Shown here: in pieces, positions 3,327-46,296 of the stretch
Numbering within the stretch: position 1 is the stretch's first letter
Layout of the letters: every line of letters starts with the position of its first letter
Assembly: GCA_963169875.1 (NCBI GenBank)
Contig: CAUJEL010000197.1
Location: 12,395-76,394, forward strand
DNA: 64,000 bases
DNA from: Candidatus Zhuqueibacterota bacterium
Lineage (GTDB): Bacteria > Zhuqueibacterota > Zhuqueibacteria > Residuimicrobiales > Residuimicrobiaceae
Direction of reading: 5' to 3'
Translations under genes and position numbers: made by a program
Notes under the pieces: generated by a model
The model's database searches: none
Seen by the model: the letters and a program-made list of their open reading frames with translations, nothing else
Told to the model about the DNA's origin: nothing

Positions 3327-3860
3327 TTATTGTTTCGCGTAGCTTCTGCTGAGCCACTTTTCAAACCGTCCCCCAAACCACAGCGCTGACGAAAACAGGA
3401 CAACGCCTGTCAATACCATAAGGAGGAACCATGTCCCCAGTTCGCTCCAGAACAAGGGATTGCTTTTGGTTCTGATGATCGCATAGATGCCATAGGGCAG
3501 ACTGAGAAGACTCGTCACAATGACGGGCACATATTTTTTCAACACCGCAAACATGACGATATGAAAAAGCACATGCGCGAAGAAGACGAGAAACGCGGCC
3601 GTCCAGAGTGCATACAGGTTGAACTCCACGGCCGCAAAAATCAGCGCGCTGAAGAAAATGAATTCCAGCGCGATCACGAAAGCGATGGCGGGCGTGGACA
3701 GGTTTTCGAAATGTGATAACATCCGGGATGCCAGAAACGGATACTTTTTCCGCACATCTGCGCCGTTTTTCGAGATCCAGGCTTTCATCATGATGATTTC
3801 TTCGAATTCGTGGATCATGAAAACCGGGAGCAGCAACCACATCAGATTGACAAGTTTCAT
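3327..3860 (-). CDS. HXXEE-domain membrane protein
   Basis: An HEFEE motif sits in the first TM helix and the rest is a multi-TM hydrophobic profile. It overlaps the upstream gene by 4 bp (ATGA), so it is probably co-transcribed with the DUF1295 gene. Confidence 0.55.
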   Translation of the reverse strand: MKLVNLMWLLLPVFMIHEFEEIIMMKAWISKNGADVRKKYPFLASRMLSHFENLSTPAIAFVIALEFIFFSALIFAAVEFNLYALWTAAFLVFFAHVLFHIVMFAVLKKYVPVIVTSLLSLPYGIYAIIRTKSNPLFWSELGTWFLLMVLTGVVLFSSALWFGGRFEKWLSRSYAKQ

Positions 3861-6023: not shown

Positions 6024-7025
6024 ATGTTCAAGAAAATCAGCCAGGTTCTGGATCCGCTCGCTTTCCACGGCGCCGCTAAAAAACCGCCTTTTTTCGAGGG
6101 GTGGTATTTCAAGTGCGTCAGCGGCGGCGGGGAGCAACTCGCCATCATTCCGGGTGTGCACCTGCATCCGCAGGCCGGGGAGAGTCACGCCTTCATTCAG
6201 ATACTGCAGGGCGGCAGCAACGCTACGAACTATATCCGCTATCCGCTTACAGACTTTAAGGCGGCGACAAGAGGTTTATCCTTTTCGCTATCCGGCAACC
6301 ATTTTTCGTTACATCAAATCCATCTGGATATCAATGAACCCGGACTGCGGCTGTGCGGTGAAGTGCATTTTTCCGGCCTGCAGCCGTGGCCTGTGACTGT
6401 ACGCTCGCCCGGGGCCATGGGCTGGTATGCCTGGGCGCCTTTCATGCAGTGCTACCATGGTGTCGGCAGTCTCGATCACCTCTTGTCCGGCCGGCTTTCC
6501 CTCAATGATCACCCGATTGATTTCACCGGCGGCCGCGGTTATCTGGAAAAAGACTGGGGGTCCTCATTCCCCAGCGCTTACATCTGGATGCAAAGCAACC
6601 ATTTTGCGATTCCGGCGACCGGTTTGATGATTTCCGTAGCGATGATTCCATGGCTAGGCGGCAAATCGTTCGCAGGATTCATCGCGGGCTTTTTGCTCAA
6701 TGGCCGCTTGTTCAGGCTGGCGACCTATACCGGTGCAGACTTGCGCGTTTTGCGGGTGGAGGATCACACGATCCATGTGGAAATTGAAAGCCGTCGTCAT
6801 CGTCTCCAGGTGACGGCGCACCGGGCCACAGGCGGGTGGCTGCAGGCGCCCGGCACGAGCGGCATGGGCGCGCGCATCGCGGAAACCCTGCAGGGCCGGC
6901 TCGATGTCCTGTTTTTTGAAAAGAAATCATCGCGGGAGAACCTGCTGTTCAACGGTACTGGCTTGCATGCGGGATTGGACGCCGCCGGGAAATTGTCGCA
7001 GTTATGCGAGGCCGGTGATGCGTGA
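6024..7025 (+). CDS. Tocopherol-cyclase-like protein (VTE1 / PF14249 family)
   Basis: The N-terminal PPFFEGWYFK motif matches the conserved FFEGWY(F/Y) block of plant and cyanobacterial tocopherol cyclases. The soluble ~330-aa length fits. The gene lies 66 bp downstream of the UbiA gene on the same strand. Confidence 0.5.
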   Translation: MFKKISQVLDPLAFHGAAKKPPFFEGWYFKCVSGGGEQLAIIPGVHLHPQAGESHAFIQILQGGSNATNYIRYPLTDFKAATRGLSFSLSGNHFSLHQIHLDINEPGLRLCGEVHFSGLQPWPVTVRSPGAMGWYAWAPFMQCYHGVGSLDHLLSGRLSLNDHPIDFTGGRGYLEKDWGSSFPSAYIWMQSNHFAIPATGLMISVAMIPWLGGKSFAGFIAGFLLNGRLFRLATYTGADLRVLRVEDHTIHVEIESRRHRLQVTAHRATGGWLQAPGTSGMGARIAETLQGRLDVLFFEKKSSRENLLFNGTGLHAGLDAAGKLSQLCEAGDA

Positions 7026-12823: not shown

Positions 12824-15800
12824 TTATTTCAGCAGCAACATGCGCTTGATCTCTTTGAACGAACCAGCCTCCAGACAGTAGAAATAGAATCCGCTCGGCA
12901 GGGCGATCGCATCCCAGGTGGTCGTGTACTGCCCGGCCGCCTGACGTGTTTCAACCAGCCTGGCGATCTCCCGCCCCTGCACATCATAGACTGTAAGACG
13001 CACCTGCATCTCCTCCGGAATCTGGTACACAATGGCCGTGACGGGATTGAATGGATTCGGATAATTCTGCTGCAAAGAGACAGTCTGCGGCAGCGCTGTC
13101 TCCGGTTCCAGCGGTTCCTCCTCATCCAGTTCCTTGGTCGCCAGCGGCAGACGCGCCAGCGCCGTCACGCCGGATGGCCGGTTGCTCTCGATCCATTCCG
13201 GATCCGAATAATCTTCACCATTCGTTTTGCCCAGTTGACCGTTATTCCGAAACGGACTGAGATCGGTGAGCTCCTGGCCCTGACCTTCGTCGAAATCGTA
13301 ATAGGCAACCAGGCCCGGTTCGTAGGTTGTCAGACGGTTGAAAATCATCTGGTTTATTTCTGCTTCGGAGCGCGCGACATTCCACAAACTCAATTCATCC
13401 AGCAATCCTTCATAGTGATACTCATAGATGTTGCCGTGTTTGGCGGCGCCGATGAAAAGGTCCTTGAGCAGATCGCGCGGGGCTGCGGTGGCCGCGCGCA
13501 TGGATTCGAGGCGGCCGTTGAGATAGAGCCGGGTTTGAGCCCCATCAAAAGTCAAGGCCGCGTGCACCCAGGTGTTGACCGGAATGGCGGAGGCCGAGGG
13601 TCCCACGATGTTATTCATGCGCGAGCCGCCCGGAATCGCCGTCCGCAACGCAGCGCACATCCTGTCCGTCGCGCCATAAAAACTGACATAGTACTCGTCA
13701 AAGGCGCCCTTTTCCAGAATACGGCTCCATTTCTGGGCAGGATCGTCAGTCTTGAACCAGAATGCGATGGTAAATTTTCGCGTGATGTTGAGGCTGGCAT
13801 CGTGGGGCACCTGGACAAAATCGTCAATGCCGTCAAACGCCAGGGCAAAATTGGGCAGAGGCGCCACTTCCCTGATCATGATTTTGAAAACCGCATCGCT
13901 GGTGTCCGCCGGTGCAGCGCCTGCGGAGGCGGCGACGCGCACCAGTGCGGAATCGGTCGCCGTGTTCGGCAAGGTCCATGTGTACACGCCGGAATCAGGT
14001 TGCGCGTTCGCCAAGAGCAGCCAGGATTGACCGTTATCAAGGGAGTAGTGCAAATCCACGGTGCCGGTGAAGGCGCGGGAGCGCCACTGTACCTGATAAG
14101 TGTCGCCGGCAAACAGGGTGTCGCCGCCATTGGGCGTCATGACCCATAATTTCGGCGGCGGATTCACAAACTGGAACTTGCCCCACATCACATCCCACGG
14201 GCACGAATGGCGTCCCGCCTCACGGATGCGCAGGGTGGCCTTTTCCTGGCTCAGGAAGGGCACATCCCAGATGAACGAGCCATCGTCCGGCGTGCTGGGG
14301 GTGATCACCAGCGGAAAGGTCACGCCCAGATCGAAAGAGAGGTCGATGGCCACATTGGCGGCGATGCGCCAGGATTTCCAGAGAATTTCAAAAGGTTCGC
14401 CGCGCACCACATCCAGGGAATCGTGCGGGGCGATAATCTGCACCCAGTGATCCGGATTCATCCAGTGGTATTCCGCGGTGAGGTCGTTGGTCAGAACGAT
14501 GCGATCCAATCGCGTATAGTTTTCGCGGCTGCGAACGGTGATTTGATGGGCGCCGGCGGTCAGATTCAGGAGCACCATATCCGGTTCCGACAGACGTTGC
14601 CAGTACCAGACGCCATCGCCTTTGCGGATTTCCCAGAGGTGTTCATCGCCGCCATCGCAGGAGACCCAGAAGGAATTGCGCGTACCGCCCGGCGCCTGGG
14701 CGCGGCCCCAGAGCACATAGAGGCCGGGTTTGGCGACGGTCACATTGAATACCGCCTTGCCGCTGTTATTTTTGTCCGAATAGATGGCTTCGCAATCGAA
14801 GGACGTGCCGTTGATCCACTTGCGCATGGGCGCGGTCAGGGCCGCATCTTCGGCCTCCATTTGCAGCTGCGCCTGCCAATTGGCGCCGGATATCGTGATG
14901 GGACTGTCATTGACATCGAATTCGGCGGGCGTTGTGCTGTTGACAACCTTGAACAGTCCGTTGGTCGTAGACAGACCAGGGACGAATGTGGCGAACGATC
15001 CGGTATTGTTGATATTTTGCGCCAGAGGTATCCATTTCGTGCCGCCATCCGCTGAAAAGTAGAGATCGACTTTGAGGGCATTATTGCCCGGCAGCCAGGT
15101 GATGGTCAACGGGTCGGCGATGTTCAGGCTGCCGCCATTGGGAGACGCCAGTACCAGCACGGTTGGCGACAAAATCGCGACCTGATAATCCTCAACTTCC
15201 CCGTCTCCGGCAAAACCGGACGGGGTCAGATTTTGCTCTGTGGAGAGACGGAACCGTGCGAATGTGTTTACTTGAACAGCGCTGGACGGCACATTGAGCA
15301 AGAGGTTGTTACTGCCTGCTGTTACCGCGCGATTGATGACAACCTGTTCTGAGGCATCGTTCCAGTCGCCATCCACATTCCAATCGATCCAGGCATTCAG
15401 ATAGGCCTGGATCCCTGTGGTGTTCTCTACCGTAACTTCAATAACTGCCTGCAAACCCTTATATAGCAGGGGAAGGGTGACGCCCTCTTCATCGTCGGTG
15501 CCATCGGCATCATCTCCCTGCGCCATTGCATCGGGCATGCCATCCACATCATGATCGATCAGCGCACCCAGTTTGAGCCTGGCATCGATCAGGTGCCCCG
15601 CGCCATTGCTGGTCAGGAGCGTGGCATAGGTTGGATCGGGTGCGTCGCCCAAATCCCATTCCATGATGTACTGGTGCGACATGGTGTTGTTGGTCCCGTC
15701 GCATTCGCCAACTGCAAGATTCGGATCGATGGTGGCTGTGAAGTTACAGCTGGATGAGATTGGGGTAAAATTGAAGGTCACATCGGCCGCTGCGCCGGCT

Positions 15801-17635
15801 GCCAGGTCAATCGATTGTTCCGTGAATGTCAAACCACAATCCGAGATCAAACGGACGACGGTGCCCAGGACGCTGCCGCAGCCTGGATTGGCTGCACGGA
15901 CGCGCACGGATACCTGCCAGTTCCCCACAACCTGCGGGGTGATCGATTGGATGGTTAAATCCGGAATCTGCAAGGCTTTGTTGGAAACCAGGCTATTATT
16001 GGTTTCATTGGTTTCTGCGATTACATGGCTATAGTCCGCTTCGATATTGAATGAAACCCCACAGCCGGTGCTGTTGACGCAAAGATTGGTCGTCAGGGTT
16101 TGCTCTGTGATGGTGAAAAGCTGTGTGCCGCTTCCCGGCAGATTAACGCCGACGAAGGTTTGCGTCCATTGATCGATTATATTACCGCTCCCCCCGTTGT
16201 TATCATACAGCGTAAATCGCATCGGGACGTCCATATTGCACGTGGTGGTGCCGGTATTTGCCAGCGTCACGGTGCCGGTGATTTGCACTTGCCCGTCCGC
16301 TATGGGGGTTATGGTCAGCGTATTGGTTGAAACCGAGAGATCAATGGCGTTCAGGTTAACGTTATAATCTTCAACTTCGCCGTCCGGTGCCGCGCCGTTG
16401 TAGGGGAGATTTGCCGTCGAACCCAAGCGAAAGCGTGCGCAGGTGGAGCCGGGCGATGCGGTGGCAGGGACGGTGATGGTAAGATTATTTGCCCCTGCTG
16501 CCAGCGTCAGATTTGTGGCGATCTGTTCGCCGCTGTCGCTCCAGTCGCCATCGCGGTTCCAGTCGATCCACGCATGCAGATAAGGTGTTGCGACGCCCGC
16601 TGTATTGGTGAGCGATATGGAGAGGGTGGCGGGTTGGCCGGGCGTCAAGTCGGGGATGGTGACGCCGTCTTCGTCATCGCCGGCGGTATCGTCGCCAGTG
16701 GCGTTGGCATTCGGTTGGCCATCATTTTCGGAATCGATGGATGCGCCCAGAGAAAAGCCGGTCAGGATAGTATGTATCGCGCCATTACTGGCCAACAGCG
16801 TGGGAAAGGTGGGATCAGGCGCATCGCCCAGATCATAGGCCACGAGATTGTTGGCCAGGGTCCAGCGCGAAAAAGCGTTGATACTTGCCAGAGCCACGTT
16901 GTTATCTGACGGGTTCGGGGTGCCGCCTTCACTGCTCCAGGAGGCGCCGGCGTTTGTCGAGCGGTACAGCTTAAGGGACGGTTCGAGTTGTCCGTTCAGT
17001 TCGCTTTCATCGTAATGAAAAATCAATGCAGCGTTGAGGCCGCTGTTCTGCGTCGGCGAGATATCAAAATAACGGGTGATGCCGCTGCTGCCGCTGCCGC
17101 TTTGCGCGGCGTGACCGCGGCGGATTTCGGTGACGCCGAGATCCGCGGCTGTGGTCAGTTCAGCGCCGAGTCCGCCAACATCGAGTCCGCTGGGGGCGTT
17201 GAGCGTGCGCGTTGTGGTGAGATAGCCGGAACTTCCTTTGACGGTGTTGCCCGCGGTTTCGCTCAGGGTGGCGGTCGTGCTCAGCGTGATGATGTTGCCG
17301 TTGAGGTCCACATCGCCCGTGGTCACAGTGAAGAGATTGTTCACCGTGAAGCTGTTGTGCAGCAGCAGATTGCCGGCGCTCTTGTTCAGCGTCAGATTAT
17401 TGAAGGAGACCCCGGTGCCGTCGTGGATGTTTTGATCTCCGCTTGCGCCATTGAAGACAACAGTACCGGTTTGGGCGTTGAAGGTGCCGCTGTTGTTCCA
17501 GTCGCCCGGCAGGCTGAGCGTGGCGCCACCCAGGGAAAATGTCGCGCCGCTACTGATGGTGAGGCCGGCGGCGTGCAGGTAAGAGGCTGCACAAATCAGA
17601 AGTACTGTTATTGCTTTGAAAGCAGGGCTTTTCAT
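12824..17635 (-). CDS. Giant T9SS-secreted surface/adhesin-like protein (GEVED x2, CARDB-like, LamG-like, T9SS C-terminal sorting domain)
   Basis: Signal peptide and an autotransporter-passenger-like N-terminal repeat region. There are two internally duplicated ~170-aa modules each ending in DGEVEDY (a GEVED domain). A LamG/concanavalin-like block (FKTDD...LTFDGAQTRLYLNGRLES) follows. The C-terminus carries the Por_Secre_tail signature NYPNPFNPVTAIVYQI. Confidence 0.75.
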   Translation of the reverse strand: MKSPAFKAITVLLICAASYLHAAGLTISSGATFSLGGATLSLPGDWNNSGTFNAQTGTVVFNGASGDQNIHDGTGVSFNNLTLNKSAGNLLLHNSFTVNNLFTVTTGDVDLNGNIITLSTTATLSETAGNTVKGSSGYLTTTRTLNAPSGLDVGGLGAELTTAADLGVTEIRRGHAAQSGSGSSGITRYFDISPTQNSGLNAALIFHYDESELNGQLEPSLKLYRSTNAGASWSSEGGTPNPSDNNVALASINAFSRWTLANNLVAYDLGDAPDPTFPTLLASNGAIHTILTGFSLGASIDSENDGQPNANATGDDTAGDDEDGVTIPDLTPGQPATLSISLTNTAGVATPYLHAWIDWNRDGDWSDSGEQIATNLTLAAGANNLTITVPATASPGSTCARFRLGSTANLPYNGAAPDGEVEDYNVNLNAIDLSVSTNTLTITPIADGQVQITGTVTLANTGTTTCNMDVPMRFTLYDNNGGSGNIIDQWTQTFVGVNLPGSGTQLFTITEQTLTTNLCVNSTGCGVSFNIEADYSHVIAETNETNNSLVSNKALQIPDLTIQSITPQVVGNWQVSVRVRAANPGCGSVLGTVVRLISDCGLTFTEQSIDLAAGAAADVTFNFTPISSSCNFTATIDPNLAVGECDGTNNTMSHQYIMEWDLGDAPDPTYATLLTSNGAGHLIDARLKLGALIDHDVDGMPDAMAQGDDADGTDDEEGVTLPLLYKGLQAVIEVTVENTTGIQAYLNAWIDWNVDGDWNDASEQVVINRAVTAGSNNLLLNVPSSAVQVNTFARFRLSTEQNLTPSGFAGDGEVEDYQVAILSPTVLVLASPNGGSLNIADPLTITWLPGNNALKVDLYFSADGGTKWIPLAQNINNTGSFATFVPGLSTTNGLFKVVNSTTPAEFDVNDSPITISGANWQAQLQMEAEDAALTAPMRKWINGTSFDCEAIYSDKNNSGKAVFNVTVAKPGLYVLWGRAQAPGGTRNSFWVSCDGGDEHLWEIRKGDGVWYWQRLSEPDMVLLNLTAGAHQITVRSRENYTRLDRIVLTNDLTAEYHWMNPDHWVQIIAPHDSLDVVRGEPFEILWKSWRIAANVAIDLSFDLGVTFPLVITPSTPDDGSFIWDVPFLSQEKATLRIREAGRHSCPWDVMWGKFQFVNPPPKLWVMTPNGGDTLFAGDTYQVQWRSRAFTGTVDLHYSLDNGQSWLLLANAQPDSGVYTWTLPNTATDSALVRVAASAGAAPADTSDAVFKIMIREVAPLPNFALAFDGIDDFVQVPHDASLNITRKFTIAFWFKTDDPAQKWSRILEKGAFDEYYVSFYGATDRMCAALRTAIPGGSRMNNIVGPSASAIPVNTWVHAALTFDGAQTRLYLNGRLESMRAATAAPRDLLKDLFIGAAKHGNIYEYHYEGLLDELSLWNVARSEAEINQMIFNRLTTYEPGLVAYYDFDEGQGQELTDLSPFRNNGQLGKTNGEDYSDPEWIESNRPSGVTALARLPLATKELDEEEPLEPETALPQTVSLQQNYPNPFNPVTAIVYQIPEEMQVRLTVYDVQGREIARLVETRQAAGQYTTTWDAIALPSGFYFYCLEAGSFKEIKRMLLLK

Positions 17636-26217: not shown

Positions 26218-26401
26218 TTACTTGAAGTGTGTCTAACTGTATTTATAATAGTAAATTAAATGCATATATGCAATCTTTTTTTCCGGTTTGTGAAAAAGCT
26301 GTTTTCAGCCAGCACAAAGATGAACTTGCAATTGGATGTTTGATTTGATAACTTTCAAAGTGAAGGCATCCAACAACGTAATCATGAGGAGATGCACCGT
26401 C

Positions 26402-27766
26402 ATGATGCAATCGATTAATCCTGCAACCGGACAGCTGCTGCGCACCTGGCCGGTCATGAATTCAGGACAAGTGGAATCCATTATCACCGCTGCGGCCCCG
26501 GCGCAGCAGACGTGGGCGAGAAGCGAATTCAGCGAACGCGCGAAAATATTGCGCGAGGCAGCCACACGGCTGCGCCAGCGCGCGCCGGAATACGCCCGGC
26601 TCATGGCGCAAGAGATGGGCAAGCCGGTGCGCCAGGGAGCCTCTGAAATGGAAAAATGCGCCTGGGTGTGCGACTATTATGCCGAACACGGTGCGGCATT
26701 TCTGCAATCTGAAATGGTGGCCAGCGACGCCCGCGAGAGCTATATCTGTTTCAATCCGCTTGGCGTCATCCTCGCCGTGATGCCGTGGAATTTTCCTTTC
26801 TGGCAGGTATTCCGTTTTGCGGCGCCCGCACTCATGGCGGGCAACGGCGCGCTCCTCAAACACGCCTCCAACGTCAGCGGCTGCGCCCTGGCCATTGAAG
26901 AGATATTTCATCAGGCCGGCATTCCCCGCGACCTTTTTCGCACTTTGCTGGTTGGCAGCGATGCGGTGGAATCCGTCATCGCGCACCCCGGGGTTGCGGC
27001 TGTGAGCCTGACAGGAAGCACGGCGGCCGGCCAGGCGGTTGCGGCCGCGGCTGGACGCCATCTGAAAAAATGCGTGCTCGAGCTGGGCGGTTCTGATCCC
27101 TACGTCGTACTCGAAGACGCGGACGTGGAAAAAGCCGCATCCATCTGCGTGCAGGGACGCATGATCAATACGGGACAGAGCTGCATCGCCGCGAAGCGTT
27201 TTATTGTGGTGGATGCGGTCCGGCAGCCGTTCGAATCCAAAGTGCTTGAGCTGATGTGGCGCTACAAGCCCGGCAATCCCCTGGAGGAGAACGCGGAGAT
27301 CGGGCCTCTGGCGCGGCTGGATTTGCGCGATGAACTGCATCAGCAGGTTATGCGCAGCGTCGAAAAGGGCGCGCGGCTGTTACTGGGCGGCGAGATCCCG
27401 CCCGGCCCCGGCGCCTTTTATCCGCCGACGCTGCTGACCGATGTGAAACCGGGCATGCCCGCCTACGAAGAGGAGATTTTCGGACCGGTGGCGGTGATCA
27501 TCCCGGTGCCGGATGAAACGTCCGCCCTCAAAGTGGCCAATGACACGCCCTTCGGCCTCGGTGCGGCGATTTTCACACGGGATATGGAAAAAGGTAAACG
27601 CCTGGCGGAAGTAGAAATCGCGGCGGGCAGCTGTTTTGTCAATGCCTTTGTCCGCTCTGATCCGCGCCTGCCCTTCGGCGGCATCAAACAGAGCGGCTAT
27701 GGCCGCGAATTGTCGGTTTTCGGCATCCGCGAATTTGTCAATATCAAGACCGTTTATGTGGGATGA
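26402..27766 (+). CDS. NAD(P)+-dependent aldehyde dehydrogenase (succinate-semialdehyde dehydrogenase-like)
   Basis: ALDH superfamily signatures are present: the FNTGQSCIAAKRF catalytic Cys region, LELGGSDP (Glu) and the NPATGQLL start. Confidence 0.8.
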   Translation: MMQSINPATGQLLRTWPVMNSGQVESIITAAAPAQQTWARSEFSERAKILREAATRLRQRAPEYARLMAQEMGKPVRQGASEMEKCAWVCDYYAEHGAAFLQSEMVASDARESYICFNPLGVILAVMPWNFPFWQVFRFAAPALMAGNGALLKHASNVSGCALAIEEIFHQAGIPRDLFRTLLVGSDAVESVIAHPGVAAVSLTGSTAAGQAVAAAAGRHLKKCVLELGGSDPYVVLEDADVEKAASICVQGRMINTGQSCIAAKRFIVVDAVRQPFESKVLELMWRYKPGNPLEENAEIGPLARLDLRDELHQQVMRSVEKGARLLLGGEIPPGPGAFYPPTLLTDVKPGMPAYEEEIFGPVAVIIPVPDETSALKVANDTPFGLGAAIFTRDMEKGKRLAEVEIAAGSCFVNAFVRSDPRLPFGGIKQSGYGRELSVFGIREFVNIKTVYVG

Positions 27767-27812
27767 AGGAATTGCCTGCGTATCTGTGAAAAGTGCTGGT
27801 TTCCCATTGTTT

Positions 27813-27990
27813 GTAGTTCCGCCTTCAGGCGGCGTTTTTGCCGGCTAAAGCCGGAACTACGAACGTTTGCTATTGCTGAATCATCGGGGAATTGAACCCA
27901 GTGTACAGTCCCCGCCTTCAGGCGGCGTTTTTGCCGGCTAAAGCCGGAACTACGAACATTTGCTATTGCTGAATCATCGGGGAATTGAAC
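27813..27990 (+). repeat. Two near-identical tandem copies (79 bp, period 93) of a double-hairpin palindromic element (REP/MITE-like; the first hairpin is terminator-like)
   Basis: The unit ccgccttcaggcggcgtttttgccggctaaagccggaactacgaac(g/a)tttgctattgctgaatcatcggggaattgaac occurs at 27819-27897 and 27912-27990 with one mismatch. It contains the hairpins ccgcc-ttca-ggcgg (followed by cgttttt) and ccggc-taaa-gccgg, flanked by inverted gtagttcc/ggaactac. Confidence 0.8.
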
Positions 27991-28099
27991 ATTATTCACG
28001 GTACCCGCCGGAGAGATGCCACATCCTGGCACGGCTATCGGGTGCGGCTGACTGTGCCCGTCTTTATGCAGGTCACGCCATGAACAGAATATCCAACCC

Positions 28100-29227
28100 T
28101 TGAGGATCCTTTTGTCAACCAACTCAGGTCATCTATACGATCCTCTCAGCGCCGCGGCCTATCCGCTCGACGCGCCGCGCTGGCGCAGCGACAGCGGCGG
28201 CCTGCTGTCGCTGGCCTGGAATGGTTCCTGGGGTCCCGATGTGGTGAAGTCCAGGACAGCGACCTTGTGGCGCTACCGCGAAGCTCTGCCCCTCGCGAAC
28301 GACGCGAATATCATTTCCATGGGCGAGGGATTTACCCCGCTGCTTGCTACATCGCGTCAGAATCGAAAAGTCTGGATCAAGCAGGAGCAGCTTTTTCCGA
28401 CCGGCTCCTACAAAGACCGTGGCGCTTCCGTGTTGATCAGCAAGGCGAAGGAACTGGGCATCCGTCAGGTGGTCCAGGATTCATCGGGCAATGCCGGCTG
28501 CGCCATAGCCGCCTACTGCGCCCGCGCCGGCATCGCCTGCGATATCTACGTCCCAGAGAAAACATCGCCCGCCAAACTGGCGCAGATTCGCAGCTACGGC
28601 GCGCGCCTCGTCCTCGTCCCCGGCACCCGGGAGCAAACCGCCCTGGCGGCTCTCGAAGCCGCCCGGAACACCTATTATGCCAGTCACTGCTGGAACCCGT
28701 TTTTTCTCCACGGCACTAAAACCTTCGCCTATGAGATCTGGGAGCAGTTGGGCGGGAAAGCGCCGCATGCGCTGGTTCTGCCGGTGGGAAACGGAACCTT
28801 GCTGCTGGGCGCTTTTATCGGATTTACTGATCTTTTGCAATGGGGGTATGTGGACAGATTGCCCAGGTTGATTGGCGTTCAGTCCGCCAACTGCGCGCCG
28901 CTGGCGCAGGCTTTCGCCCGCGAGGTGGAGGCCCCCTGGCCGATCGAAAAGCAGGACACTATCGCGGAAGGCATCGCCATCGCTGAGCCCGTCCGCGGCC
29001 GCGAAATACTGCAGGCCGTGGCCAGCAGCGGCGGCCATTTCATCACGGTTTCTGAAGAAGAGATAGCTACGGTCTGGCGGGAGTTGGCTCTGCAGGGTTT
29101 TTATGTCGAGCCCACGGCCGCGGCCGGCATTGCCGGCCTGGATCGTTACTTGAACAAAACGCCTGAATCAGAAATTATCGTCTCGGCCTTCACCGGCCAT
29201 GGACTCAAATCCCCGACCGGGCATTAG
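28100..29227 (+). CDS. Threonine-synthase-like PLP-dependent enzyme (tryptophan-synthase beta fold)
   Basis: LWRYREALPL...GEGFTPLL start and FPTGSYKDRGASV (PLP lysine) motif, plus a Gly-rich SSGNAG loop. The length fits a short-form ThrC. Confidence 0.6.
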   Translation: MRILLSTNSGHLYDPLSAAAYPLDAPRWRSDSGGLLSLAWNGSWGPDVVKSRTATLWRYREALPLANDANIISMGEGFTPLLATSRQNRKVWIKQEQLFPTGSYKDRGASVLISKAKELGIRQVVQDSSGNAGCAIAAYCARAGIACDIYVPEKTSPAKLAQIRSYGARLVLVPGTREQTALAALEAARNTYYASHCWNPFFLHGTKTFAYEIWEQLGGKAPHALVLPVGNGTLLLGAFIGFTDLLQWGYVDRLPRLIGVQSANCAPLAQAFAREVEAPWPIEKQDTIAEGIAIAEPVRGREILQAVASSGGHFITVSEEEIATVWRELALQGFYVEPTAAAGIAGLDRYLNKTPESEIIVSAFTGHGLKSPTGH

Positions 29228-30281
29228 CTTTTTCCCATTCCAAAATGGCATCGAGCAGCTTCTCCGGACCGAAGCGAATCACGTCGGTGACCGGAAGGTT
29301 CATTTCATCCTCCACCCGCTCGATCTCTCGCCGTGCATTCTCATCCTGGAAATCCATCAGGTTTAAGGCCACGCCAATCACCCTGGCCGGATATACGGGA
29401 CGCGTTATCGCTTCATAGAGGGATCTCACTTCCTGCAGAGGGGCGATGGGCGTCTCCGGCGTGCCGCGCATGATGGTGCGGCCGGCCGGATGGCAGAGGA
29501 TGAGCAGCTGCGGCGCAAAGCCGTAGAGCATGCTCAGCGTTACGCCCGCATAAAGGGGGTGGGTGATGGCGCCCTGGCCTTCGATGAGCAGGTAATCGTA
29601 ATCCTCTGCTTCGAGGACGAGCCGTTCCGCGGCGCCGGCGACGAAATCGGAGATGACCCGGTCCATGGCCATGCCGCGGCCGCTGATGAGAACGCCGGTC
29701 TGGCCCGTGGCAATGAAAGTGGATTTCAGGCCGCGTTCGCGCATGGCTCGATCCAGTTCAAGGGCGGTGATCTTTTTGCCGCAGTTGCAGTCCGTGCCAA
29801 CGGTATGGATGCGCAGATTATCCAGTTTGGCGGCGCGGCATTTGTTGACGCTCAGGTCGTCGGGCACACGGCGCAGATCGATCAATTGGACGCCGTGCTG
29901 CTGTGCGGCCCGGCTGAATTCTTCATCTTGCGACAAAAAGTGATGCAATCCGCTGATGACCTGCAAGCCATGGTTGATGGCGTTGAGGATGATCGCGCGC
30001 CAGGGCAGCGGCAGCTGTCCGCCCGGCGGCGTGATGCCGATGAGCAGGGCGTTGGCGCCCAGAGCGATGGCCTGCTCCAGCGTCGCCACAATGGGTACAC
30101 CGACGCCGGTTCCCATGAGTTCGCCGGCGTCGCGGTCGGCCTGGTCGCTGTCGAGCAGCGCAATCACAGCGTTGCGGCGATAGCGCAGCATGCCCGCCGC
30201 GGTCTTGGCGGGCGTGGGATGCGTCTGGCCCTGGGTTAATATCACATAGCGAAGTTGGGAGGGTAGCCATGGTGCGTGCAT
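29205..30281 (-). CDS. DUF1611-domain protein (Rossmann-like, function unknown)
   Basis: Typical DUF1611 blocks ...LLIGITPPGGQLP..W...I..AI..GL.VISGLH... and the C-terminal DUF1611 region. Start set at the internal ATG at 30281. Confidence 0.55.
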   Translation of the reverse strand: MHAPWLPSQLRYVILTQGQTHPTPAKTAAGMLRYRRNAVIALLDSDQADRDAGELMGTGVGVPIVATLEQAIALGANALLIGITPPGGQLPLPWRAIILNAINHGLQVISGLHHFLSQDEEFSRAAQQHGVQLIDLRRVPDDLSVNKCRAAKLDNLRIHTVGTDCNCGKKITALELDRAMRERGLKSTFIATGQTGVLISGRGMAMDRVISDFVAGAAERLVLEAEDYDYLLIEGQGAITHPLYAGVTLSMLYGFAPQLLILCHPAGRTIMRGTPETPIAPLQEVRSLYEAITRPVYPARVIGVALNLMDFQDENARREIERVEDEMNLPVTDVIRFGPEKLLDAILEWEKANARSGI

Positions 30282-30344
30282 AGTGTTCAGACCTGACAGA
30301 TTGGCATGAAAAGGTTCTGCTCTGTTGTTAATTATATGCTGACA

Positions 30345-30433
30345 CGCATAATTCACCGCCAGGAACGTGGAGATGCGCAGAGAAAAACTAACCTGAATTA
30401 TTCACCGCCAAGGACGTAGAGGTACGCAAAGAA
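30345..30433 (+). repeat. Imperfect 37-bp direct repeat (2 copies, period 52) in the DUF1611/YitT upstream region
   Basis: attcaccgccaggaacgtggagatgcgcagagaaaaa and attcaccgccaaggacgtagaggtacgcaaagaaaag share about 30 of 37 positions. Confidence 0.4.
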
Positions 30434-30567
30434 AAGAAAAACATAAAAATGGCATTGATAACAACTTTGATGACTGAGATGAATTTTTAATCAAAAACTT
30501 TTCGATAATTATAATAAAAATGGCTCGGCGGCCTCTGCGCGCCCGGCGGTTTATGGACGGGAAATTT

Positions 30568-31521
30568 TTAGATGCGTCCCCGGAATCCTTCTCCCAAGAC
30601 TTCGTGAACATTATTGAGTATGACAAAGGCTTTGGGATCGATGGCTTTGACCACCTGGACCAGGGTGCCGATCTCTTTCCGGCTCAGCACGGTATAGATA
30701 ACCTTGCGCGGCTGGTTGGTGAACACACCTTGCGCGTCCACCAGCGTGGCGCCCCGCCCCATATCGTTGACAATGTGCTGACTGATCTCATCCGCTTTTT
30801 CAGAGACGATGAGTGCGGAGCGAGCATAGTCGAATCCGTCAAGGATGACATCCACGAGACGGCTGGAGACGAAGAGCAGAAAGAAAGCGTACAGGGTCAG
30901 CGTCAACGCCGGGCGGTCCAGGGAAAGGTGTTTAAAATGGATGACAAATCCGGCGAATGTGATCACCAGGGAATCGACGGCCATGAACACCATGCCGGGT
31001 TTCAGACCCCAGCGTTTTTGGCCGACGGCGGCCAGGACATCGGAACCGGCGGTGCTGCCGCGGAATTTAAAAATGATGCCCAATCCCAAGCCCAGCAGGA
31101 CGCTGCCGATGAGAATGAGAAAGAGAAAATCGCTTTGGCGCAGGTTGACGATGGCCGGATGCTCATGCAAACGGATGCTGCCCAGTCCGGGGATCTCGCC
31201 GCGCAGCATATCAATGAAGAAAGAGTTGGCGGAGAAACCGACAAAGGTGCGGGCGCCGAACTGCTTGCCGAGTTCGCGCACGCCCCAGATGTAGAGGGGA
31301 ATGTTGAAAATCCACATGGTCAAACCGACGGGTATTTTATCGCCGGAGAGATAGTGAATGGCCATGGACAATCCGCTGACCCCGCCGGGCACAACCTTGG
31401 CGTCGACGAGAAAGATGGCGATGCCGGCCGCCATGATGAAGGCGCCGAAGAGGATGGCGATATAATCCATGACGATGGTTTGCGAAGTGATGAGTTTTTT
31501 GATCTTTTTCCTGGCGACCAT
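30568..31521 (-). CDS. YitT-family membrane protein (DUF161 + DUF2179)
   Basis: YitT N-terminal membrane domain (DYIAILFGAFIMAAGIAIFL, GGVSGLSM) with the C-terminal DUF2179 region. Confidence 0.75.
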   Translation of the reverse strand: MVARKKIKKLITSQTIVMDYIAILFGAFIMAAGIAIFLVDAKVVPGGVSGLSMAIHYLSGDKIPVGLTMWIFNIPLYIWGVRELGKQFGARTFVGFSANSFFIDMLRGEIPGLGSIRLHEHPAIVNLRQSDFLFLILIGSVLLGLGLGIIFKFRGSTAGSDVLAAVGQKRWGLKPGMVFMAVDSLVITFAGFVIHFKHLSLDRPALTLTLYAFFLLFVSSRLVDVILDGFDYARSALIVSEKADEISQHIVNDMGRGATLVDAQGVFTNQPRKVIYTVLSRKEIGTLVQVVKAIDPKAFVILNNVHEVLGEGFRGRI

Positions 31522-31689
31522 ATGAAATAGCCTTTCTGGGAGAAATAGTGTAAAGCATTTACAGACATTAAAATATTAAAAAAAAACAAAATGAGCAAGA
31601 GACTTTAACCGGGCTGGTAAAATTTGCTTGCGCTGGGTACTCTGGCTGAGTATATTATGCAAATTGCGGCATCCATGTGAGGTTGGATC

Positions 31690-38700: not shown

Positions 38701-41700
38701 ATGAATGTATCAGGTAAATTTATTCTTATTGGGGCAGGTTTATTGGTCGTGCTCGTCTGTTTCCCTGTCAGTGAGGCACAGGCGGCGTATTTGCGTGATG
38801 TACCCGTTGCGTTTCGCCAACCTGACGGGACGGTACTATCCTGTTATGTGAGTGGGGACGAGTTTTTCAATTGGGCGCATGACCGGGATGGCTATCCCAT
38901 CATGCGGGATCCATCAAGCGGATTTTACGTCTATGCGACCGTGGTGGATGGCGTACCGGTCCCGACACATCTTCGGGTTGGCGAGGCTGTTCCTGCGCGG
39001 GCCAGCCTGAACAAGGATTTTAAAATGGCCCCGCAAAGATGGGAAGAGATGCGGCAGCAATTTATCAGCAAGCCGCGCGCCTTTTTTCCCCCGGAGCGGC
39101 AGCTGGCTCCGAAAACGGGTGTATTGCAGAACATAGTCATTTTCATCCGTTTCAGCGACGAGGCGGAATTTACCACGCCCATCTCGGTCTACGAGACCTC
39201 GTTCAACAGTGATATCCCCGGTGTAAATTCACTGCGGAATTACTTTCAGGAAGTCTCTTACAATCGGCTGCTGGTGCAATCCTATTTTTATCCACTCCCG
39301 GGTGTCAATGTGGTCTCTTTTCAGGACAGCCACCCACGCGGCTATTTCATGCCCATCGCGCTCGATCCCCTGGGGTATTCTGACAGCGCGGAGCGCGATC
39401 AGCGCGAACAGACGCTGATCCGGGATGCCCTTCTCGCTGTAAAGGCGCAAATCCCTGGCGATCTCGATCTGGATGGCGATGACGACGGCCAGGTCGATAA
39501 TATGGTCTTTATCATCTCCGGAACGCCGACGGCCTGGAATACCCTGTTGTGGCCGCATGCCTGGTCCCTTTACATGTATACCGTCTATCTAAATGGTGCC
39601 CAGGTCGTGCCGTACAATTTTCAGATTCAATCCTTTCTCAGCAATGGCAGCACCCATGTCCTGGCGCATGAAATGCTGCACAGCGTCGGGTTTCCCGATC
39701 TCTATCATTACGCCAGCGATGGCCTCAGTCCGGTGGGCGCGTGGGACATCATGGCCAGTCCGACTGCTCCACCGCAACATCCAGGCGCCTATACCAAGTG
39801 GCGTTACGGCGGCTGGATTGATGCCATACCGGAAATCGCCGCCAATGGCGGCTATGCGCTCAACCCGTTGACATCCCCGCTGGGTAACTGTTATAAAATA
39901 TTGAGCCCGGAAGATCCCGGCGGCGCGCAATTTTATGTGGTCGAGTACCGCAAAAAACAAACCGGAACATTCGATGCCACTGTGCCCGGTGAAGGGATGC
40001 TGGTCTACCGCATCGATCGCCGCAATCCCGGCATTCAGGGGAGCACAGCCATCCCCGAGGAGGTTTACATTTACCGTCCCGGTGGAACGCTGAGCACCAA
40101 CGGCTCCTTGTCCACGGCCCATTTCAGTCAAGGCAGCGGACGGAACCTCATCAATAATGGCACGGACCCGGTTCCCTGGCTGGCGGATGGCACGCCCGGG
40201 GGCTTGAATCTTTTCAATATTGGCGAAGCCGCGGAGACGATCTCTTTCACGGCTGGATTGACTGCGCCGCAGGCACCGGTTCTGGTGGCCCCGGCTGATC
40301 ATGCTCTGGACGCGCCTCTCTCTGTGCTGCTGACATGGGATGCATCCGCGGGCGCCGAGAGCTATGATATACAGGTGTCCACTGATCCGGATTTTAACAA
40401 TCTCATCATGGACAAGGCCGACAATGTTTTGAATTTCTGGCCGGTCAACAGCCTGGTGCGGAGCACGACCTATTACTGGCGCGTGCGCGGCCAGAATTAC
40501 CAGGGTGAAGGGGTCTGGTCGCCCTATTTTCAATTCACGACCCTGCCGGATCTGCCTGCGGCCATTCGATTGTCCAGCCCTGAAAACGGCTGGGTAGATG
40601 TCACCCTGAATCCCGTTCTGGTCTGGCAAAATGACCAGCTGGCAACGAGCTACCATTTGCAGCTCTCGTTGACATCCGATTTTGATCCGGTTGTACACAA
40701 TTTTACAAATTTACCCGCAACTGAACAGTCCGTGTCCGGGCTGAACAGCGGCAGCACCTGGTACTGGCGCGTTGCCGGACACAACGGAGCTGGGGATGGT
40801 CCCTGGTCCGACGTCTGGTCCTTCACCACCATTCAGAGTCCCGCTAATGCACCTGTGCTCTCCTGGCCGCTGGATGGCGCCTTGGGCGAAACAGTCAATC
40901 CGGCGCTGAGTTGGGCAGGTGTCAACGGTGCGTCGGCGTATGAAGTGGCGTTGGATGTCTCGGCCGATTTTCCGGCGCCGGTTTTTCACACCTCGAGTGC
41001 CACGGGAGCGGGGGTGACCGCATCGAACCTGGAAAATATGACGACCTATTTCTGGCATGTGCGCGGCTTGAATGAAGCGGGGCCCGGCCCCTGGTCCTCC
41101 ATTCGTTCTTTCACCACCCAGGAATTGCCGGTTGAATTGGTATCCTTTACCGCCACCGCCCACTTCCAGGGCATTCACCTCGAGTGGGTGACGGCCTCGG
41201 AAACGGAAAACTACGGCTTCGATGTGGAGCGTAAAGCGGCAAATTCGGGTGCGGGTGAAAGTGCATGGAGCAAAATCAATTTTGTCGAAGGCCATCACTC
41301 CACCAGCGTAGAACACACCTATCAGTATCTGGATCAGGATGTCACGGTGGGCGATTATGCGTATCGACTGAAGCAGATCGATCTCGACGGCCATTATGCC
41401 TATTTGCCGGAACAGCAGGTCAGCTGGGCGCAACCACTGCAGTGGAAGCTGGATCAGAATTACCCGAATCCGTTCAACGCCACAACGGTGATCACCTATC
41501 AACTGCAGCAGCCCGGCCCGGTGCAGTTGGCAATTATCAATGCCATGGGACAGACCGTGCGTTCGCTGGTGCAGAATTTTGCTGCTGCCGGGGAGCATGT
41601 GGTGCGCTGGGATGGATGCGATGACCACGGTCTGCCAGTGGCGGGCGGGATTTATTATTATACGCTGCGTTGCGCGGAGTTTCAGGAGACCAGGGCGATG

Positions 41701-43678: not shown

Positions 43679-44821
43679 ATGGCAATTATGAGCAGAATGG
43701 CGGTCGAGACGCTCGATAATGAGTCCACCATCGTCAACATGGGGCCGCAGCACCCCTCCACCCATGGCGTCATCAATCTCAGGCTCCAGCTCAAAGGCGA
43801 AGTCATTGAAGCCGTGGATCCCAATGTCGGCTTTTTGCATCGCAGCATCGAAAAAATCGCCGAACTCACCCAGTACACGGGATTTATCCCCTATACCGAC
43901 CGTATCGATTACCTGGGCGCGATGTTCGGCAATATGGGATATTGCATGGCGGTGGAGAAGCTGCTGGGCGTGGAAGTCCCCCGTCGCGCGCAATATATGC
44001 GCGTCATCGCCTGCGAATTGAACCGCATCATCAACCATCTCATCGCCTGCGGCACCATGTCCATGGACCTCGGCGCTTTCACGCCGTTCCTCCATGGCAT
44101 ACGCGAGCGCGAAAAAGTCAATGATATGATGGAAAAAATCTGCGGTGCACGGCTGAATTACAACTATATGCGCTTCGGCGGTGTCTCTCTGGATTACATG
44201 CCGGGTCTCGACAAGGAAATTCTCGCATTTCTCGACCGTTTTGAACGGTTCCTTCCCGAATTCAACCGTCTGATCACCGGCAATGAAATATTTGTCCAGC
44301 GCTTGTTGCACGTGGGCGTCATTCCCAAAGAAACCGCCATTCATTACGGCCTGGGCGGCCCAAACCTGCGCGCCTCCGGCGTCGACTTTGATGTCCGCCG
44401 GGATTATCCCTACAGCGTCTATCCGGAATTCTCATTTGATGTCGTGACCGGTGGTCACTATCCGGGTGAATGCGGTGACTCTTATGCCCGTTACATGGTG
44501 CGCATCGATGAGATGCGCCAGTCGGCGCGTCTGGTGCGCCAGGCTGTCGAAGGACTGCCCGAAGGCGAATATCTCGCCAAGGTGGCGCGCAATCCTGTGC
44601 CGCCCAAGGGTGAAGTCTACAGCAAAGTGGAAAGCGTACGCGGCGAGATGGGGTTTTATCTCGTCAGCGATGGCACCGACAAGCCCTACCGTCTCAAAGT
44701 GCGCACCAGCTCCTTCTGCGCCATGTCGGTCATGCCGGAAATCGGCCCGGGTCTCATGGTCGCCGATATGACAGCCTTTTTCGGCAGCCTGGATGTGGTG
44801 GCGCCGGAAGTGGATAGATAA
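43679..44821 (+). CDS. nuoD: NADH-quinone oxidoreductase subunit D (49 kDa)
   Basis: NuoD/NiFe-hydrogenase large-subunit-like blocks (MGPQHPSTHGV, RIDYLGAM, LKVRTSSF). It is a separate gene, not fused to nuoC. Confidence 0.9.
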   Translation: MAIMSRMAVETLDNESTIVNMGPQHPSTHGVINLRLQLKGEVIEAVDPNVGFLHRSIEKIAELTQYTGFIPYTDRIDYLGAMFGNMGYCMAVEKLLGVEVPRRAQYMRVIACELNRIINHLIACGTMSMDLGAFTPFLHGIREREKVNDMMEKICGARLNYNYMRFGGVSLDYMPGLDKEILAFLDRFERFLPEFNRLITGNEIFVQRLLHVGVIPKETAIHYGLGGPNLRASGVDFDVRRDYPYSVYPEFSFDVVTGGHYPGECGDSYARYMVRIDEMRQSARLVRQAVEGLPEGEYLAKVARNPVPPKGEVYSKVESVRGEMGFYLVSDGTDKPYRLKVRTSSFCAMSVMPEIGPGLMVADMTAFFGSLDVVAPEVDR

Positions 44822-44825
44822 TGAG

Positions 44826-45048
44826 CCGCCTGAAGGCGGAACTACGAACCATGGCCAGTTAATATTTTGAAAAGCAAGTGTTTGTAGTACCGGCTTCAGC
44901 CGGAAAGAACCCGCCTGAAGGCGGAACTACGAACCGTGGCCAGTTAAGATTTTGGAAAGCAAATGTTCGTAGTACCGGCTTCAGCTGGAAAGAACCCGCC
45001 TGAAGGCGGAACTACGAACTGATGCCGCCTGAAGGCGGAACAACGAAT
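44826..45048 (+). repeat. About 2.5-copy 85-bp tandem array of the same double-hairpin palindromic element family, in the opposite orientation to the 27.8-kb copies, inserted between nuoD and nuoH
   Basis: ccgcctgaaggcggaactacgaac recurs at 44826, 44911, 44996 and (degenerate) 45026. The spacers between copies are themselves about 90% identical (c(a/g)tggccagttaa(t/g)attttg(a/g)aaagcaa(g/a)tgtt(t/c)gtagtaccggcttcagc(c/t)ggaaagaac). It is therefore a tandem repeat, not a CRISPR array. Confidence 0.8.
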
Positions 45049-45063
45049 AAACGAGTGGATGGT

Positions 45064-46296
45064 ATGAAATATCTCTTCGACTCCCTGACCGCCAACTGGA
45101 ACCTGTCGCCCTGGATGACCACCCTGGCGCTTGTGCTGTGGGTAGTGGTGATCACCGCGGGCGTGCTGGTTTTCATGGCGACCTTCGCCGGTTTCACCTC
45201 CTGGGTTGAACGCCGCATCGCCGGACGCATGCAATCGCGCATCGGCCCGAACCGCGTCGGACCATTCGGCGGCCTGCAATGGCTCGCGGACGGCCTGAAG
45301 TGCTTCCTCAAAGAGGATGTCATCCCCAAGGCCACAGATCCGGTGCTGTTCCGCCTGGCGCCCTATCTCGTCTTCCCCGGCGGTTTTGCGGCTTTCGCCG
45401 CCCTGCCGTTTGGCTACGGCATTGCCGCCTCCAACATCGATATTGGCATTTTTTACATCACCGCCATCACCTCCCTGGTGGTCATCGGCATTCTCATGGC
45501 GGGTTGGTCAAGCAACAACAAATGGTCGCTGATCGGCGGCGTGCGCAGCGCCGCGCAAATCATCTCCTATGAAATTCCCGGCGGCCTGGCCATTCTCACC
45601 GTCGTGGTGCTCGCCGGCACGCTGAATATGCATGAACTGGTCGTGGCCCAGGGCGGCTGGCCGTGGCACTGGTTCATCTTTCGCAATCCCTTCACCTTTG
45701 TCGCTTTTTTCATCTTTTTCGCCTCCATCCTCGCGGAGGGCAACCGCACGCCTTTCGATTTGCCGGAAGCGGAAAGCGAACTGGTGGCCGGTTATCTGAC
45801 CGAGTATACCGGCATGCGCTTTCTGTTTTTCCTCTTCACGGAATGGGCCAACGTCTGGGTTATCTCGGCGCTGCTGACAACGCTGTTCCTGGGCGGCTGG
45901 CAGATTCCCGGCATCACCGATCTGGGTGCCACCATCGCAGCGGCGACCAGCCTGGGGAAATGGTTCTGGGTGCTGCTCAGCGTTGCGATGTTTTTCATCA
46001 AGACCTCCGCACTCGTTTTCCTGGTCATTCAGATTCGCTGGACCCTGCCGCGGCTGCGCGTCGATCAACTGATGATCATGTGCTGGAAGTATCTGGTGCC
46101 CATGGGTTTTGTGACGCTGCTGGGCTCCGCGATTTTCCTGGTGCTGCCGCGCGAAGGCGCCTGGGCGTGGTTTCATCTCTCCGTGCAGGGCATCATGACA
46201 CTCATCGGATTTGCCATTGTCGCGGGTTTGATAGGACGGGCCTGGTATAACATTCATGCCCTGAAAGATCGCATCTCTTTGGAAAATTGGTTATAA
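45064..46296 (+). CDS. nuoH: NADH-quinone oxidoreductase subunit H
   Basis: NuoH/ND1 motifs ([37 protein letters not shown]). Start moved to the ATG at 45064 (MKYLFDS). The ORF-track 5' extension only reads through the repeat array. Confidence 0.85.
   Translation: [410 protein letters not shown]

Follow-up and report, generated by a model that had tools for sequence, protein, structure and literature searches.

The stretch of DNA analyzed here, 64,000 nucleotides (nt) from a Candidatus Zhuqueibacterota bacterium (contig CAUJEL010000197.1; “the window”), carries a nuo operon for complex I with an array of short palindromic repeats between nuoD and nuoH. Pfam searches gave the order nuoA, nuoB, nuoC, nuoD, array, nuoH, nuoI, nuoJ and nuoL, which matches that of relatives, which are without nuoEFG. 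A 377-amino acid (aa) protein in NCBI data (P0121) is 100% identical to the NuoD encoded in the window. The start of nuoH was fixed at 45064 by the N-termini of three relatives (409-410 aa), which begin MKNWFD where the window NuoH begins MKYLFD; the nuoD-nuoH spacer therefore spans 44822-45063 (242 nt). This spacer is filled by the array, which has an 85-bp tandem period, starts 4 nt past the nuoD TAA and ends 15 nt ahead of the nuoH ATG (Table 1). A first-pass annotation of the sequence had placed a repeat array in exactly this setting, and the Pfam matches to both flanking genes confirm it.

Tandem Repeats Finder called 44826-45019 as a repeat with a period of 85, 2.3 copies, 94% matches and a score of 346. 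The 24-mer CCGCCTGAAGGCGGAACTACGAAC occurs exactly at 44826, 44911 and 44996, with a further copy at 45025 that has two mismatches; in dinucleotide-shuffled versions of the window it had no match. Full 85-bp copies 1 and 2 are 93% identical, and all six of their differing positions fall inside the 61 intervening bases, which are therefore ~90% identical. These intervening bases include a second hairpin (CCGGCTTCAGCCGG at 44890, CCGGCTTCAGCTGG at 44975) and, likewise, its inverted partner GTTYGTAGTA. The period, the identity of the intervals and the second hairpin with its partner had all been part of the first-pass annotation, and each was recovered by Tandem Repeats Finder, by alignment of the copies or by inspection of the array.

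Read on the opposite strand, the 24-nt unit has the form gttYGTAG-tW-CCGSC-TTYA-GSCGG, that is, a GTAG tag and two unpaired bases ahead of a hairpin with a 5-bp G+C stem and a loop of 4 nt. In this orientation CCGCCTGAAGGCGGAACTACGAAC becomes gttcGTAG-tt-CCGCC-ttca-GGCGG. The “second hairpin” is a unit of the same kind that faces the opposite way and whose stem change is compensated: gttt/gttcGTAG-ta-CCGGC-ttca-GCCGG. In total, 44826-45048 holds six copies of the unit, five with a GTAG foot and one with GTTG. The predicted folding energy of a single unit is −9.1 kcal/mol for RNA and −5.2 to −5.5 kcal/mol for DNA. Orientation alternates between CCGGC-stem and CCGCC-stem units, and the linkers alternate between short (7 nt, AAAGAAC) and long (30 nt). 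The tags lie on the outer sides of each (+)/(−) pair, which corresponds to the head-to-head dimer of repetitive extragenic palindromes (REPs) of Di Nocera et al., also known as a REP doublet forming hairpin (REPIN). Doublet 1 is a heterodimer of a CCGGC-stem unit (44880-44903, + strand) and a CCGCC-stem unit (44911-44934, − strand). The 85-bp period is accounted for by the 55-nt doublet together with the 30-nt linker.

Table 1. Genes and repeat features at the nuoD-nuoH junction, and the second repeat cluster of the window (window coordinates)
Feature	Coordinates	Strand	Description
nuoD	43679..44821	+	49-kDa subunit; TAA 44819-44821; Pfam PF00346 Complex1_49kDa, E 1.5e-88
REP unit a	44826..44849	−	hairpin CCGCC-tgaa-GGCGG 44826-44839; tag gttcGTAGtt on minus strand, 44840-44849
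Long linker 1	44850..44879		30 nt; joins two tag ends (tail-to-tail junction)
Head-to-head REP doublet 1	44880..44934		REPIN-like, 55 nt: gtttGTAGta-CCGGCttcaGCCGG / AAAGAAC / CCGCCtgaaGGCGG-aaCTACgaac
Long linker 2	44935..44964		30 nt; tandem copy of linker 1
Head-to-head REP doublet 2	44965..45019		tandem copy of doublet 1; one G-T (G-U) pair in stem 44975-44988
REP unit f	45025..45048	−	5 nt past doublet 2, head-to-tail to it; degenerate tag GTTG for GTAG
nuoH	45064..46296	+	Pfam PF00146 NADHdh, E 1.5e-108
Second cluster of the same REP family	27809..28004		between an aldehyde dehydrogenase gene (26336-27766) and a pyridoxal phosphate (PLP)-dependent enzyme gene (28100-29227)

Relationship to GTAG-tagged REPs

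The unit is a short stem-loop palindrome with GT[AG]G at its 5′ foot and a mainly extragenic location, both REP clusters of the window lying between Pfam-confirmed genes. These are among the features by which REPs are recognized. Inverted pairs with a short spacer, as in REPINs and bacterial interspersed mosaic elements (BIMEs), are found at 44880-44934, 44965-45019 and 27809-27864. Taken together, the data indicate that the array is very probably a BIME-like cluster made up of six GTAG-tagged REP units with a signature of the type associated with REP-associated tyrosine transposases (RAYTs), and that it represents a lineage-specific insertion of mobile DNA expanded by local duplication. The proposal of a REP-like intra-operonic array is thereby upheld by the anatomy of the unit, that is, by the GTAG tag, the hairpin and the alternating orientation. 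The accompanying suggestion that the double hairpin is novel and resembles no named REP is not: the unit is a canonical GTAG-tagged REP, and the “double hairpin” is an inverted REP doublet. Such doublets (head-to-head dimers, of the REPIN or BIME type) are described in Di Nocera 2013 (PMC3733652) and in Quentin 2018 (PMC6006769).

Parallels with the GTAG-tagged REPs extend to several levels. PMC3733652 describes REPs with a terminal GTAG and complementary stem variants, as in the array, and PMC6006769 refers to the “canonical REP with 5′ GT[AG]G foot”. GTAG-1 and GTAG-2 REPs have an unpaired dinucleotide between tag and stem, and the GTAG-1 repeats of Thauera have a 5-bp G+C stem and a short loop, again like the units of the array (PMC3733652). 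The GTAG super-family as a whole also forms head-to-head, tail-to-tail and head-to-tail dimers, builds clusters in which dimers are tandemly repeated with flanking DNA, and is found just downstream of open reading frames (ORFs) and between co-directional genes; it was reported earlier in Planctomycetes and Verrucomicrobia (PMC3733652). The array consensus was not placed among the 24 GTAG families published there, in a comparison by description only. For Rhodopirellula baltica, the REP-encoded peptides given for GTAG-20 and GTAG-21 (…GTTEL and …GGTTS; PMC3733652) would, if back-translated, imply a similar GGAACTACG tail with other stems.

The array also resembles E. coli BIME-2 and the REPINs of Pseudomonas (PMC3116915), which have two alternating inverted REP subtypes, short and long linkers, a tandemly repeated motif and a hairpin formed by the doublet. 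The units of those elements are ~35-40 nt long, compared with 24 nt in the array, and the sequences are unrelated. E. coli BIMEs bind gyrase or integration host factor (IHF).

A full-text literature search for the unit sequence returned only unrelated primers and oligonucleotides, and no occurrence was found in the supplementary material of Di Nocera 2013. Rfam 15 gave no match at gathering score for the whole window, and a permissive Rfam search of 44000-46000 gave only chance-level matches to microRNA (miRNA) and long noncoding RNA (lncRNA) families, all far under their gathering scores. A CRISPR array was ruled out, since the units alternate in orientation and the 30-nt “spacers” are near-copies of one another (~87% identical, four differences in 30 nt). 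Integron attC sites, whose consensus is GTTRRRY / RYYYAAC, were likewise rejected; the termini GTTYGTA / TACRAAC do not fit this consensus, and there are no cassettes.

Occurrence in the window and in public genomes

Evidence that the unit belongs to a true element family came from a search for further copies. The window itself contains a second cluster, downstream of an aldehyde dehydrogenase gene, in which a head-to-head doublet at 27809-27864, gtttGTAGtt-CCGCCttcaGGCGG / CGTTTTTG / CCGGCtaaaGCCGG-aaCTACgaac, has been tandemly duplicated with ~40 nt of flank, giving a period of 93. The second copy of its first hairpin (27912-27925) is without a GTAG tag because the duplication begins exactly at the first base of the stem. 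The two separate clusters of the window amount to 10 tagged units and this one tagless hairpin.

The pattern CCGSCNNNNGSCGGWACTACRAAC was then scanned over one genome per species (596 Gb) and matched at least 119 stretches (L001-L119). A uniform-composition estimate predicts ~17 chance matches. The counts that follow are among the matches listed, and the taxon labels are those given by the depositors of the metagenome-assembled genomes (MAGs). By record title, the matches comprise 55 from Planctomycetota, 19 from Desulfobacterota or “delta”, 16 from Acidobacteriota, 12 from Verrucomicrobiota, 9 from Lentisphaerota, 3 from Kiritimatiellota and 5 others. Loci with two or more units are present in all six main groups; single-unit loci in rare taxa (Myxococcales, Methylococcaceae, Vecturithrix) were not counted, because chance matches are expected. 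Individual MAGs may hold several copies, with 14 loci in one Desulfobacterales MAG and 5 in one “delta proteobacterium” MAG. Most described REP families are narrower than this one, which is found in at least six labeled phyla.

The sequence of the unit is closely maintained across these loci. Among 223 strict units, 206 have gttc or gttt directly ahead of the tag, 204 have tt or ta as the dinucleotide past it, and 200 have ttca or ttta as the loop. The stem is CCGCC/GGCGG in 177 cases, CCGGC/GCCGG in 28 and CCGCA/TGCGG in 15. The last of these forms lies outside the search pattern and was seen 14 times in an unbiased listing, as opposed to one or two half-changed (uncompensated) forms; the stem therefore co-varies. 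Head-to-head doublets, with spacers of 5-16 nt, are the commonest arrangement (55 of 85 neighboring unit pairs, with 23 head-to-tail and 7 tail-to-tail). The units tend to fall outside long ORFs, which make up 67-80% of the bases yet contain only 14-23% of the units. All-against-all clustering of ORFs around the 119 listed loci revealed no gene family accompanying the REPs, which is how dispersed REPs are expected to behave.

The dispersal of the unit also bears on whether the array could be an artifact of assembly, or else a private local duplication outside any element family. Short-read assemblies are known to err at tandem repeats, and the 30-nt linker and the exact AAAGAAC doublet did not turn up at any other locus in the scans. 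However, the 24-nt unit is dispersed through the window and through many genomes. In addition, an independent short-read Logan assembly of a ~95% identical strain (L137) has the same first unit and linker right after nuoD, with a few substitutions, up to the point where the next REP unit starts and the contig stops. Assembly artifact is unlikely because the tandem copies differ at six of 85 positions and because this independent assembly shows the same junction; the tandem copy number is given as assembled. Considered as a whole, an explanation by artifact or private duplication is extremely improbable. Judging from its sequence distribution, the long linker itself looks like local sequence and not like a conserved linker motif.

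A candidate cognate transposase

A possible source of the mobility of this REP family was found by using E. coli RayT (from NC_000913) as a phmmer query against all ORFs of the REP loci. There was one clear match, in a Planctomycetaceae MAG (L063; E 5.5e-10; Pfam Y1_Tnp), with a REP unit ~165 nt downstream of the RAYT gene. A strict HUH...Y regular expression applied to the ORFs of the loci gave no match, this expression being too narrow. The L063 protein has 974 homologues at E ≤ 1e-10, mostly of 197-198 aa, and many of them are on contigs of ~1 kb, which would be expected if the gene is embedded in repeats.

The neighborhoods of five homologues (P0001, P0009, P0044, P0081 and P0057) were examined. 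REPs of this design lie on both sides of the RAYT gene, within ~200 bp, in all five, and the stem found in the window is present in four. For P0001, P0009 and P0044, the sequence gttYGTAG-tN-CCGSC-tt(t/c)a-GSCGG occurs on both sides within ~90 nt, mostly as head-to-head doublets. P0081 has single units ~180 nt upstream and ~70 nt downstream, and across these four neighborhoods the loops read tt(t/c/a)a. P0057 (59% identity with the query) is flanked by REPs with the same tag and loop and other stems (AATCCC/GGGAT and ACTGCC/GGTAGT). A RAYT gene flanked by its own REPs constitutes a REPtron, the arrangement by which RAYT-associated REPs are defined, and RAYTs include a small subclass with the motif NHYH and a length of ~199 aa (PMC6006769). 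The RAYT genes examined in genomes other than that of the window have this REP family on either side.

Two side observations concern these neighborhoods. Downstream of P0057 (L128 versus L129/L130, ~3690-3860), a head-to-tail REP array differs by one ~46-nt unit between metagenome samples that encode an identical RAYT protein; the copy number of REP arrays varies. At the P0001 locus (L121, 3001-3100), the 231-aa RAYT call begins inside the upstream REP, such that its residues FVVPPLGG are REP-encoded, and the real start is probably MYDYR.

In a second alternative, the units would be the ends of an IS200/IS605-type insertion sequence, or miniature forms derived from one (a palindrome-associated element or a MITE, a miniature transposable element with inverted repeats), and not REPs of a domesticated RAYT. 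The Y1 HUH fold is common to RAYTs and IS200/IS605 transposases, Pfam gives only the general Y1_Tnp, and the doublets end in MITE-like 10-bp inverted termini, GTTYGTAGTW ... WACTACRAAC. In contrast, the NCBIfam equivalog NF047646, “REP-associated tyrosine transposase”, scored above its cutoff in all four scanned proteins (P0001, P0009, P0044 and P0081), whereas IS200 reached 16 bits against a cutoff of 55. When P0009, the sole homologue queried, was compared with solved structures, the only match was E. coli TnpA-REP (4ER8), with the HUH (NHYH) and tyrosine (YIHNNPVKH) motifs aligned. Moreover, inverted REP doublets border the genes symmetrically, with no distinct left and right ends; no tnpB-like partner is listed adjoining the RAYT in the four neighborhoods with called genes; and the GTAG foot is a hallmark of REPs (PMC6006769). 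An IS200/IS605 identity is accordingly very unlikely.

The ~197-aa homologues resemble the REPtron of E. coli rayT (PDB 4ER8) in having HUH and tyrosine motifs and REP doublets on both sides. Their motifs NHYH and YIHNNP are closest to subclass 2.8 (NHYH, ~199 aa) or 2.4 (YIxNNP) of PMC6006769 and not to the E. coli and Pseudomonas groups, in a comparison of motifs only. From these sequences, we infer that the REP family of the array is the cognate REP of a RAYT clade of the NHYH type, whose HUH motif reads NHYH and whose tyrosine motif reads YIHNNPVKH. To judge from E. coli TnpA-REP and other model enzymes, such a RAYT would recognize the GTAG foot and hairpin on single-stranded DNA and would then cut and rejoin the strand, spreading REPs to sites just downstream of genes. 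For the genome of the window, mobilization of this kind is presumed; the RAYT would lie outside the 64 kb, if it is present at all. The 85-bp period probably stems from local tandem duplication of the doublet with its linker.

Age of the insertion and possible consequences for the operon

Three relatives with 81-82% identical NuoD and the same gene order have nuoD-nuoH spacers of 55 nt (L132), 2 nt (L133) and 71 nt (L135), and no unit of the array's REP family was found in these three spacers. Since the relatives' spacers are free of the family and the ~95% identical strain shares the start of the array, the insertion would be lineage-specific, recent on the scale of the lineage, and common to close strains. 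Sequence comparison thus indicates that the nuoD-nuoH array is a real insertion of recent date on that scale.

Other palindromes were seen in the same operon of two of these relatives. L133 (GCA_964387285.1; NuoD 81% identical) has a related GTAG-REP head-to-head doublet in its nuoH-nuoI spacer, at 6396-6451: atGTAGtg-CCGGC-ttta-GCCGG / aaattcct / CCGGC-tgaa-GCCGG-taCTACat. L135 (NuoD 82% identical) has a perfect 16-bp palindrome, GTCACCCCGGGGTGGC-cga-GCCACCCCGGGGTGAC, in its nuoD-nuoH spacer, at 5146-5180; the same palindrome is present in L136. It is unrelated to the array's REP family and occurs once in the 9-kb locus. Colonization of nuo operon spacers by different palindromes in different relatives fits the site preference of REPs, which favor positions just downstream of ORFs and between co-directional genes (PMC3733652).

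RNA folding predictions suggest that the array may affect the nuo mRNA. The whole spacer folds with −101.7 kcal/mol (z −7.85). Doublets 1 and 2 are each predicted to pair into one imperfect hairpin with 21 base pairs (−30.7 kcal/mol, z −6.7, and −31.1 kcal/mol, z −7.0, respectively), and each of the doublets at 44880-44934, 44965-45019 and 27809-27864 folds as one long hairpin of −31 to −33.5 kcal/mol. Co-transcribed with the operon, the array would form RNA hairpins of high stability. If E. coli is a guide, these hairpins could act as a barrier to 3′ exonucleases, protecting the nuoABCD part of the mRNA, and ribosomes would possibly stall at the nuoD stop codon, 4 nt upstream of the array. 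In E. coli, REPs <16 nt from a stop codon lower translation, as summarized in PMC12306157. The strength of the predicted fold and the start of the array 4 nt past the nuoD stop are the grounds for supposing that such an effect may occur.

In a rival reading, which is that of the first-pass annotation, the array would be a selected intercistronic RNA element, such as an mRNA stabilizer, a partial attenuator or a translational brake, through which the expression of nuoABCD is set relative to that of nuoH-N. Such co-option would be compatible with a REP origin. The very stable predicted structure is consistent with this model, as is the position of the first stem within the 15-nt range of REP ribosome stalling reported for E. 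coli in PMC12306157. The insertion is also retained in the ~95% identical strain, the G-T change in one stem still pairs as G-U in the sense RNA, and the spacers of relatives hold the other palindromes described above (the 16-bp palindrome in L135 nuoD-nuoH and the doublet in L133 nuoH-nuoI). Several findings argue against selection. The array is absent from the three relatives with 81-82% identical NuoD, one of which has a spacer of just 2 nt, and the REP family of the array is also present at unrelated intergenic sites. No intrinsic terminator (hairpin with U-tract) was found on the + strand of 44300-45500, and no sigma-70-like promoter was found on the sense strand at the array; weak terminator-consensus matches on the minus strand lie inside the array (two) and inside nuoD (one). 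The last 15 nt ahead of the nuoH ATG, which form the ribosome-binding region, are unpaired in the local fold. Finally, the subunits of complex I are required in equal amounts, so there is no obvious need for uncoupling. A selected element is therefore an unlikely explanation, and co-option of the nuoD-nuoH array for mRNA stability or translational braking in particular is improbable. By the E. coli analogy, any RNA effects are likely to be by-products of the insertion and not a conserved regulatory device of the nuo operon.

While the data as a whole favor a BIME-like insertion of a mobile REP family, some of them weigh against it. The 64-kb window contains no RAYT gene. Metagenome scans with the 30-nt linker and with the AAAGAAC doublet of the window type gave no copy beyond the nuoD-nuoH locus. 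Furthermore, the recurrence of differing palindromes in operon spacers of relatives (L135 and L133) leaves some room for a selected stem-loop role.

Several features of the window are separate from the REP family. At 30339-30435, two adjoining 48-nt direct repeats, 77% identical (CTGACACGCATAATTCACCGCCAGGAACGTGGAGATGCGCAGAGAAAA), lie in A+T-rich intergenic DNA between an ORF at 29205-30356 (−) and an ORF at 30520-31530 (+); they have no Rfam match. Longer repeats at 313-1393 (period ~321 bp, four copies) and at 40463-41072 (288 bp, three copies) are both inside long ORFs and look like repeated protein domains rather than DNA elements; the latter is within a 1020-aa protein with Ig/fn3-like domains, encoded just upstream of the nuo operon. 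At 12824-17635 (−), the window encodes a protein of 1603 aa in which GEVED, CARDB and Laminin_G_3 domains are joined by a Por_Secre_tail domain, for type IX secretion sorting, at the C-terminus. This domain and the nearest named NuoD, which is from Candidatus Zhuqueibacterota (74% identity), make an origin of the window in the FCB group probable.

The array has practical consequences for annotation and assembly. An in-frame ATG at 45022, upstream of nuoH, is inside the array and is not a real start; its use would add the REP-encoded MPPEGGTTNKRVDG to NuoH. Annotators should mask the array to avoid this false N-terminal extension, and the same applies to the RAYT call in L121. Small minus-strand ORFs at 44944-45279 and 45012-45335 overlap nuoH and were rejected as spurious. 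REP arrays also interrupt short-read assemblies, as in L137, which stops at the second unit.

For the nuo operon the array has little consequence, being best read as lineage-specific selfish or domesticated DNA. It is an already known kind of element, a BIME/REPIN-like cluster of GTAG-REPs, and the breadth of its family is the notable part. The sequence matches indicate that the GTAG-REP family and the RAYT clade of the NHYH type occur very widely in Planctomycetota and in several further phyla. A nearly identical 24-nt REP over six labeled phyla would be unusually broad, and may point to horizontal transfer of REP and RAYT together. It is tentatively proposed, with a little less than even confidence, that horizontal transfer has carried one REP-RAYT lineage into at least six phyla and into the organism of the window, its 24-nt REP staying nearly unchanged. 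If true, this would not fit easily with the idea, put forward in two preprints (bioRxiv 10.1101/2022.05.22.493013; 10.1101/2021.07.10.451892), that the inheritance of REPIN-RAYT systems is essentially vertical. The broad REP-RAYT family may be a handy system in which to study the conservation of REP specificity and any movement of REPIN-RAYT systems across phyla.

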